Positions 45,126-46,207 of a stretch of DNA of 64,000 nt are shown here, piece after piece. A program made the position numbers and the translations under genes. A model generated the notes under the pieces. That model ran no database searches. It saw only the letters and a program-made list of their open reading frames with translations, and had not been told where the DNA came from. Every line of letters begins with the position of its first letter. The stretch's first letter is position 1. This DNA is from Escherichia coli (GTDB lineage Bacteria > Pseudomonadota > Gammaproteobacteria > Enterobacterales > Enterobacteriaceae), in the NCBI RefSeq assembly GCF_003334785.1, contig NZ_QOWV01000004.1; one strand, written 5' to 3'.

Positions 45126-45196
45126 AGCTCACTTTGTTAACAACTTTAACTACTCTTTAATGCAGTATTAAAGATTAATCGGTAACAAAGTGAGCT
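45126..45196 (+). promoter_or_regulatory. 14-bp perfect inverted repeat with nested inner palindrome ending 4 nt before the yhbW start
   Basis: agctcactttgtta (45126-45139) and taacaaagtgagct (45183-45196); inner ctttaat-gcagt-attaaag at 45155-45173. Confidence 0.5.
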
Positions 45197-45199
45197 GTT

Positions 45200-46207
45200 A
45201 TGACTGATAAAACCATTGCGTTTTCGCTACTCGATCTGGCCCCCATTCCCGAAGGTTCTTCAGCGCGAGAAGCATTCTCCCACTCTCTCGATCTCGCCCG
45301 TCTGGCTGAAAAGCGCGGCTATCATCGCTACTGGCTGGCAGAACACCACAATATGACTGGCATTGCCAGTGCTGCCACGTCGGTATTGATCGGCTATCTG
45401 GCGGCGAATACCACCACGCTGCATCTGGGGTCTGGCGGCGTGATGTTGCCTAACCACTCACCGTTGGTCATTGCAGAACAGTTCGGCACGCTTAATACAC
45501 TCTATCCGGGGCGAATCGATTTGGGGCTGGGTCGTGCTCCGGGTAGTGACCAACGGACAATGATGGCGCTACGTCGTCATATGAGCGGCGATATTGATAA
45601 TTTCCCCCGCGATGTGGCGGAGCTGGTGGACTGGTTTGACGCCCGCGATCCCAATCCGCATGTGCGCCCGGTACCAGGCTATGGCGAGAAAATCCCCGTG
45701 TGGTTGTTAGGCTCCAGCCTTTACAGCGCGCAACTGGCGGCGCAGCTTGGTCTGCCGTTTGCGTTTGCCTCACACTTCGCGCCGGATATGCTGTTCCAGG
45801 CGCTGCATCTTTATCGCAGCAACTTCAAACCGTCAGCACGGCTGGAAAAACCATACGCGATGGTGTGCATCAATATTATCGCCGCCGACAGCAACCGCGA
45901 CGCTGAATTTCTGTTTACCTCAATGCAGCAAGCCTTTGTGAAGCTGCGCCGTGGCGAAACCGGGCAACTGCCGCCGCCGATTCAAAATATGGATCAGTTC
46001 TGGTCACCGTCTGAGCAGTATGGCGTGCAGCAGGCGCTGAGTATGTCGTTGGTAGGTGATAAAGCGAAAGTGCGTCATGGCTTGCAGTCGATCCTGCGCG
46101 AAACCGACGCCGATGAGATTATGGTCAACGGGCAGATTTTCGACCACCAGGCGCGGCTGCATTCGTTTGAGCTGGCGATGGATGTTAAGGAAGAGTTGTT
46201 GGGATAG
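45200..46207 (+). CDS. yhbW: luciferase-like flavin-dependent monooxygenase family protein
   Basis: 335-aa ORF, LLM-class oxidoreductase fold. Confidence 0.85.

Follow-up and report, generated by a model that had tools for sequence, protein, structure and literature searches.

The mechanism closest to the one proposed here is the fold-back inhibition of the transposase genes of the insertion sequences IS10 and IS50, which was reportedly described on read-through transcripts by Davis, Simons and Kleckner in 1985 and by Krebs and Reznikoff in 1986. In these elements, the strand complementary to the ribosome site is found solely in transcripts that enter from outside, and the native start is located between the arms. 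Other systems are comparable in part: the switches in the 5' untranslated region (5' UTR) that sequester the Shine-Dalgarno sequence (riboswitch platforms, ROSE, and fourU), the intrinsic terminators and the 3'-stabilising stem-loops of Rho-terminated transcripts, and the class II promoters of the MarA/SoxS/Rob/RamA regulators (micF, fumC, lpxC P2, lpxL P1, and rfaY P1). Here we analyzed an inverted repeat located between the ubiV and yhbW genes in a stretch of 64,000 nucleotides of Escherichia coli DNA (contig NZ_QOWV01000004.1), the whole of which is called the window below. We give an even chance to the reading in which this repeat is a composite boundary element, consisting of a hairpin at the end of the ubiUV transcript that hides the yhbW ribosome site, with a yhbW promoter nested between its arms. 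The components are each of a known kind, and their combination is undescribed for this locus, so far as our literature search showed.

The yhbW locus resembles the IS10/IS50 case in that the upstream sequence is complementary to the ribosome-binding region of the gene, with 14–17 nt pairing over 45183-45199, and in that only read-through RNA would fold, the yhbW start being predicted to fall between the arms. It differs from this case in that yhbW is a chromosomal housekeeping or stress gene and not a transposase gene, in that the upstream arm apparently doubles as an activator site, and in that the hairpin marks the 3' end of the upstream operon. As in the switches sequestering the Shine-Dalgarno sequence, an upstream strand pairs with the ribosome-binding region; unlike them, the yhbW element has neither an Rfam match nor a conserved ligand-type core in E. 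coli, and the strand opposing the Shine-Dalgarno sequence is probably located outside yhbW's own mRNA.

The inverted repeat and its conservation

Window coordinates equal those of NC_000913.3 minus 3,258,248, and the window is identical to MG1655 over 43000-47000. The perfect core of the repeat consists of two 14-nt arms, AGCTCACTTTGTTA (45126-45139) and TAACAAAGTGAGCT (45183-45196), which are complementary at 14 of 14 positions and are separated by a 43-nt spacer. The extended arms are the imperfect 17-nt arms of the same repeat (45123-45139 and 45183-45199, 94% in the repeat search). The same search placed an inner palindrome at 45151-61 and 45167-77 (91%), with a perfect core at 45155-61 and 45167-73. 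The ubiV-yhbW intergenic region amounts to 80 bp, the left arm begins about 4–7 nt past the ubiV stop codon, and the right-arm core ends at 45196, the yhbW ATG being located at 45200. The repeat, its coordinates, the spacer, the inner palindrome, and the distance to the ATG are all exactly as an earlier note on this DNA gave them.

45117..45119, + strand: ubiV stop codon TAA (open reading frame 44223..45119; RefSeq annotation)
45123..45139, + strand: left arm (perfect core 45126-45139), 5' strand of the long stem in read-through RNA (repeat search, fold)
45155..45173, + strand: inner palindrome CTTTAAT-GCAGT-ATTAAAG, upper hairpin in read-through RNA and predicted -10 region as DNA (repeat search, fold)
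45183..45199, + strand: right arm (core 45183-45196), yhbW 5' UTR and ribosome-binding region, 3' strand of the long stem (repeat search, fold)
45200..45202, + strand: yhbW start codon (open reading frame list, annotation)

Perfect inverted repeats of at least 14 nt with a spacer of 3–100 nt occur twice in the 64-kb window, and this repeat is one of the two; dinucleotide shuffles gave an expectation of 0.015 per window. The complementarity of the arms cannot be due to chance. The other such repeat, at 29769-29800 with a 4-nt loop, is probably an ordinary terminator hairpin. The RNA folding proposed in the earlier note was carried out on 45120-45215, and the two-tier stem-loop that it predicted was found: the structure has a free energy of -28.1 kcal/mol (z = -6.0), a stability that none of 200 shuffled sequences equalled, and the base of its stem comprises 17 bp. 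When Rfam covariance models were run on the E. coli element, only a sub-threshold hit to mir-1285, a generic hairpin, was obtained (27 bits vs a gathering score of 56), and an assignment to a structured RNA family (riboswitch, leader, or small RNA) was rejected, there being no true match.

Of the 5426 E. coli genomes searched, 5424 have a match, and in 5423 of these the element is present in a single copy with an identity of at least 95%. It occurs at a median of one place per genome in these 5424 genomes, and the matches in the window are the two arms only. A repetitive element of the repetitive extragenic palindromic (REP), enterobacterial repetitive intergenic consensus (ERIC), or miniature inverted-repeat transposable element type was ruled out, since the element is single-copy.

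The yhbW upstream regions of about 20 enterobacterial genera and of metagenome loci were then compared. Three blocks are conserved, namely the left arm, TTTAATGCAnTATTAAAG, and the right arm (T)AACAAAGTGAGC followed by the ATG; the remainder is not kept. The left-arm core GCTC(A/G)CTTTGTTAA(C/T), with at most one of these substitutions, was identified in Escherichia, Salmonella, Citrobacter, Superficieibacter, Enterobacter, Klebsiella, Kluyvera, Cronobacter, Franconibacter, Atlantibacter, Entomohabitans, and Pluralibacter. The inner palindrome is disrupted in Salmonella, and by eye shows one compensatory change in Cronobacter. One contig labelled 'MAG: Klebsiella pneumoniae' (L076) carries a luciferase-like gene that is only 58% identical, in GC-rich, non-enterobacterial-looking surroundings; it is probably a mis-binned contig and was left out of the comparison, the K. 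pneumoniae locus being obtained through cluster members instead.

In Providencia (L093:1100-1200) and Tenebrionibacter (L095:1100-1200), yhbW is not beside ubiV and a divergent gene is located upstream of it. The right-arm core ACAAAGTGAG is nevertheless retained in both, (A)ACAAAGTGAGT standing directly 5' of the ATG, whereas the left arm is absent in Providencia and degenerate in Tenebrionibacter, where a 9-bp complement remains. The right-arm sequence travels with the yhbW gene, and since its core survives where the left arm is lost or degenerate, the two arms are not equivalent.

In 16 of the 17 taxa whose left arm could be recognised, the minimum-energy fold joins the left arm to the right one, as it does in K. 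pneumoniae and Kluyvera, and this pairing holds over spacers of 43 to ~170 nt. In the genera with a long form of the 5' UTR (see below), ACAGC/GCUGU lengthens the stem. One pair of the arm alignment switches from A-U to G-C. The right-arm changes opposite the invariant GTTAAC are A-to-G changes (GTAGC, GTGAC, TCGAC, and AAGAC), by which U.G pairs are kept in the plus-strand RNA; these changes suggest a selection on pairing, which does not reach significance. The fact that the complementarity persists across about 20 genera while the neighbouring sequence diverges is the main argument that it is maintained.

The ubiUV 3' end and the yhbW ribosome site

The ubiUV promoter is activated by Fnr and is transcribed only from microaerobiosis to anaerobiosis (PMC10470549). 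In a published SMRT-Cappable-seq data set, the 3' end of the ubiUV transcript falls 2 nt beyond the extended stem, and the hairpin would account for this 'novel TTS'. The features concerned, together with two located around the yhbW start codon, are the following:

43190 (NC_000913.3 3301438), + strand: ubiUV operon transcription start (SMRT-Cappable-seq row 3301438-3303449; PMC6131387)
45201 (NC_000913.3 3303449), + strand: mapped ubiUV 3' end, listed as 'novelTTS' for genes b3158/b3159 (SMRT-Cappable-seq Supplementary Data 1; PMC6131387)
45190..45194, + strand: weak Shine-Dalgarno candidate GUGAG (best duplex of the 5' UTR with the anti-Shine-Dalgarno sequence, about -4 kcal/mol)
45240..45317, + strand: C-rich, G-poor stretch, a speculative Rho loading region (38% C, 22% G)

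There are 162 reads at the ubiUV start, 16 of which end at 45201 and 53 within 50 nt downstream; 28 reads pass 45201, with a median read-through of 76 nt (PMC6131387), so that almost no ubiUV transcript spans the 1-kb yhbW gene. Most likely, the hairpin is made in vivo on the ubiUV RNA and marks its 3' end. The earlier note had held that the repeat is not a simple terminator for ubiV. The absence of a U-run, on which this claim was based, is borne out; the dismissal of a terminator role finds no support, a 3' end being mapped at 45201.

Compared with intrinsic terminators and the 3'-stabilising stem-loops of Rho-terminated transcripts, the locus shows a stable stem-loop directly past the stop codon, an RNA ending just past the stem, and further ends clustered just downstream. 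The combination of a stem and a U-run that characterizes intrinsic terminators is lacking. The hairpin also differs in that its structured loop measures 43 nt in E. coli and more than 110 nt elsewhere, and in that it encloses the predicted promoter and the ribosome site of the next gene. The stretch at 45240-45317, just inside yhbW, holds 21 YC dinucleotides in 78 nt, which is a local maximum; the scattered downstream ends and this C-rich stretch would also be compatible with Rho-dependent termination on untranslated RNA, the 3' end of which would then be trimmed to the stem.

In the computed fold of read-through RNA carrying both arms, the Shine-Dalgarno region (45189-95) has a probability of 0.000 of being unpaired; for RNAs with a start at 45174-45178, the value is 0.90-0.92. 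Since the predicted yhbW start falls between the arms, RNA with both arms would be ubiUV read-through and not yhbW mRNA. The earlier note had proposed a two-tier stem-loop that would occlude ribosome binding. This occlusion was recovered by computation wherever both arms are present on one RNA; as a property of yhbW's own mRNA it was not. The interpretation given in the note is partly supported: the occlusion would concern RNA that arrives from ubiUV and not the predicted yhbW mRNA. The latter is predicted to form a small hairpin of its own at 45178-45208 (AUCGGUAACA / UGUU..ACUGAU), whose loop displays the Shine-Dalgarno sequence and whose internal loop contains the AUG, and this hairpin may favour initiation on the native mRNA.

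A candidate yhbW promoter between the arms

YhbW is a luciferase-like flavin monooxygenase (PMC6561319) that is induced by oxidative and xenobiotic stress. The statement in the earlier note that no regulation is described for yhbW proved wrong: the gene belongs to the MarA/SoxS/Rob/RamA regulon (PMC4310594, PMC3139621, PMC6561319), and its activation by these regulators is based on published experiments. The K. pneumoniae yhbW promoter is shifted by purified RamA in an electrophoretic mobility shift assay and is activated 6.9-fold in vitro (PMC4310594), yhbW expression is 3.0-fold lower in a Salmonella ramA mutant (PMC3139621), and in E. coli, yhbW is listed in the SoxS regulon and encodes the most vanillin-induced protein (77-fold; PMC6561319).

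Taken together, the left arm and a CAnTAT sequence located downstream of it resemble a class II mar/sox/rob promoter, from which transcription is predicted to begin near 45175, the left arm being the predicted activator site:

45124..45143, + strand: marbox-like site ATAGCTCACTTTGTTAACAA, forward, a putative MarA/SoxS/Rob site overlapping the -35 (consensus match)
45142..45155, + strand: variable spacer from the left arm to the promoter core, its length kept and its sequence not (comparison)
45163..45168, + strand: predicted -10 CAGTAT (conserved CAnTAT, with A at -11 and T at -7; fixed spacing to the left arm)
45174..45178, + strand: predicted yhbW mRNA start (placed from the position of the -10)

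The site at 45124-45143 agrees with 11 of the 14 specified positions of the marbox consensus used here (AYnGCACnnWnnRYYAAAYn), and it is the sole match with at most three mismatches on either strand within 260 bp 5' of the ATG. The predicted -10 begins 19 bp past the 20-bp marbox, and a predicted start near 45175 puts the centre of the marbox at about -41. Class II promoters are defined by a forward marbox centred between -36 and -55 (PMC12052159), and the RamA site of micF is located at about -41 (PMC8811837). In Salmonella lpxC, a marbox beginning with GCTC is bound by all four regulators. The yhbW site would resemble those of the class II promoters in having a putative forward marbox over the predicted -35, centred at about -41, along with a weak core promoter and documented regulon membership. 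It differs from them in being degenerate, with T for A in GCAC and AAC for AAA, and in having been missed by the published screens and by Salmonella chromatin immunoprecipitation sequencing (ChIP-seq). A second, inverted marbox in the right arm was considered and rejected: it shows at least four mismatches, and its AAA element is not conserved.

Between the left-arm 15-mer and CAnTAT, 14 of the 16 taxa have a gap of 21 nt and the other two a gap of 20 nt, and K. pneumoniae shows an identical left-arm 15-mer, a 21-nt gap, and then CATTAT. The stretch between the left arm and CAnTAT is identical to that of E. coli at only 10–17 of 21 positions outside Escherichia. CAnTAT and the ATG are separated by 31 to 105 nt, depending on the taxon, since some genera carry a block of ~70 nt there. 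A fixed geometry between the upstream site and the -10, combined with a 5' UTR of variable length, is promoter-like behaviour. Moreover, since the left arm follows the ubiV stop codon so closely, any promoter within the 80-bp intergenic region must fire downstream of the left arm. A consensus promoter and terminator scan of 44800-45400 gave nothing above threshold; a sub-threshold -10 would be expected for an activator-dependent promoter.

The ~70-nt block is conserved in Klebsiella, Kluyvera, Cronobacter, Franconibacter, Atlantibacter, Entomohabitans, and others, only downstream of the -10, and is absent from Escherichia, Salmonella, Citrobacter, and a few others. It is located between the predicted yhbW start and the right arm (K. 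pneumoniae, L097:1105-1200; further loci L099, L005, L010, L087, L088, L090, and L094; and 28 metagenome loci, e.g., L104, L108, L124, and L188) and consists of UGCAGCUUUUCUGG, a variable hairpin, and then CCAGGCUGGAAGAAGACCUUCAAUCUGAUGAC. A 24-nt stretch of the block is invariant in Klebsiella, Kluyvera, Cronobacter, and Franconibacter, and the apical hairpin shows compensatory changes by eye. Among the 120 stretches listed, 28 of the 28 matches in an enterobacterial context lie upstream of yhbW. No match was found when the long-form orthologous loci were searched against Rfam, and RNAalifold gave a weak consensus for the long-form 5' UTR (-8 kcal/mol). An upstream open reading frame in this region (ARLEEDLQSDD..) was rejected as not coding: it has no start codon in several genera, is interrupted in others, and shows variation that is not of the synonymous type. 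The block could be an undescribed 5' UTR regulatory RNA.

All insertions of ERIC or REP sequences lie upstream of the left arm; the interval from the left arm to the -10 is free of them. Many E. coli strains carry a 125-bp insertion between the ubiV stop codon and the left arm (e.g., 05_3471, L001:430-555, and D97-1, L004:430-555), as does E. albertii (L009). This insertion is an ERIC element containing the ERIC primer sequences ATGTAAGCTCCTGGGGATTCAC; it swaps the three bases 5' of the perfect arm from AAT to CAC, and a 16-bp perfect stem remains. In Salmonella enterica (L085:1019-1125), ~100 extra nt with the REP-like palindromes GCCTGATAAGCGTAGCGCCATCAGGC are located in the same interval. 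In E. coli M19 (L003:1690-3270), an IS110-family element is inserted inside the right arm, the sequences diverging after TAACAAAG, and the annotation gives yhbW as a pseudogene truncated at its 5' end. Palindromes and repeats are frequent targets of IS110-family elements.

Alternative readings and the proposed boundary element

Several results weigh against the composite boundary element and concern each of its parts. As regards the activator site, matches to the marbox consensus with at most three mismatches occur at chance level in the window (137 found vs 142 expected). The site shows three mismatches to the 15-mer of a 2025 E. coli marbox screen (PMC12052159) and is not included in the tables of that screen, no peak is listed at yhbW in published Salmonella ChIP-seq data, and the vanillin induction of yhbW in E. 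coli is independent of soxS (PMC6561319). As regards the start, no yhbW start was found by gene name or coordinate prefix in the supplements of Kim 2012, SMRT-Cappable-seq, and Adams 2021, nor was any found in the MarA and Salmonella regulon papers searched. As regards the ubiUV 3' end, the evidence is thin (16 reads, from one sheet of one study), and the end at 45201 was not found in the Term-seq supplement of Adams 2021. The hairpin would make a poor intrinsic terminator, having a 43-nt loop and, in its 3' flank GUUAUGAC, no U-run. Lastly, the covariation analysis that the earlier note had proposed lends the pairing no support: the compensatory signal does not rise above shuffled controls (85.7% of the cells of the 16-taxon arm alignment are paired, a share equalled in 56 of 500 shuffles), the arms hardly varying.

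The hairpin might serve as the ubiUV terminator or 3' stabiliser only, its overlap with the yhbW signals being a by-product of the short intergenic region. The mapped 3' end, the short read-through, and the stability of the hairpin all speak for this explanation, which we nevertheless consider rather unlikely: the U-run is missing, the 70–130 extra nt tolerated in the 'loop' would be odd for a pure terminator, and the right-arm core is kept even where yhbW is not downstream of ubiV. Since this core is conserved without ubiV, the terminator appears to be built on the yhbW ribosome site and not beside it. Alternatively, the yhbW mRNA might begin 5' of the left arm, in which case the hairpin would be a translational switch acting in cis and responding to a ligand, to temperature, or to a protein. 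Such a hairpin would fully occlude the Shine-Dalgarno sequence, and the data sets searched contained no yhbW start that would contradict an upstream one; but the promoter would have to sit inside ubiV, no marbox-like site with at most three mismatches occurs in 44863-45123, and the ERIC and REP insertions present in many strains and species would part such a promoter from the left arm. A promoter within the repeat agrees with the conserved blocks and with the constant distance between them, and no Rfam family was matched, so that we see little probability in a switch of this kind.

The earlier note had also suggested that the arms might be half-sites for a looping regulator acting on DNA, a suggestion that is disfavoured by the variable distance between the arms, by their unequal conservation, and by the poorer marbox of the right arm. 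A DNA element, whether of this type or composed of two inverted marboxes, one activating and the other repressing at about +14, would explain why both arms are kept as sequence with almost no compensatory change, and why the left arm is marbox-like. It appears very improbable, since the arms stand anywhere from 43 to ~170 nt apart without any helical phasing, since the minus strand of the right arm shows at least four marbox mismatches and a varying AAA (GTTACC, GTTATC, GCTACA, and GTCACA), since the right arm persists without the left one in Providencia, and since the A-to-G changes opposite GTTAAC are of the kind that keeps U.G pairs in plus-strand RNA. The view that the repeat has no present function and is what remains of an inverted duplication or a small mobile element has in its favour that IS110-family and ERIC elements land in or beside it; it can hardly be upheld for a sequence that is single-copy in every genome, the complementarity of which about 20 genera have kept even though the spacer between the left arm and the -10 has diverged, and at the foot of which RNA 3' ends are mapped.

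In the composite boundary element proposed here, Fnr-activated ubiUV transcription starting at 43190 would enter the intergenic region, and the two arms, once present on one RNA, would fold with about -28 kcal/mol. The hairpin would set the point at which the ubiUV mRNA ends, acting as a weak, non-canonical terminator or else halting 3' exonucleases once termination has occurred slightly downstream, and it would bury the yhbW Shine-Dalgarno sequence, so that read-through RNA would yield no YhbW. As DNA, the left arm would act as a forward marbox over the -35, and the loop of the inner palindrome would supply the -10 CAGTAT; MarA, SoxS, or Rob (RamA in other genera) would activate this nested promoter in class II fashion. 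The yhbW RNA would then start near 45175, without the left arm, and its ribosome site would be located in an open loop. The translational insulation and the manner in which the 3' end is formed are the parts that we infer, as are the activator site and the start position. It is possible, although we would sooner expect the contrary, that the same 14–17 nt are under dual selection, as an activator site and -35 in DNA and as an anti-Shine-Dalgarno and terminator strand in RNA.

An insulator at this place would make biological sense, because ubiUV is anaerobic and controlled by Fnr, whereas the yhbW monooxygenase is induced by oxidative and xenobiotic stress. The analysis provides a concrete map of a predicted promoter for yhbW, which ranks among the most strongly induced yet least understood members of the mar/sox/rob regulon, and it calls for caution in annotation, since a hairpin that covers a ribosome site does not necessarily control the gene behind it. 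The separation, within 80 bp, of two neighbouring units that run in the same direction but obey opposite oxygen logic would exemplify the uncoupling of genes. If the dual selection is true, a whole promoter inside the terminator hairpin of the preceding operon would form an 80-bp insulator between anaerobic and oxidative-stress expression; and if this arrangement is general, promoter-in-hairpin boundaries could be a recurrent and unrecognised means of uncoupling closely packed co-directional genes.

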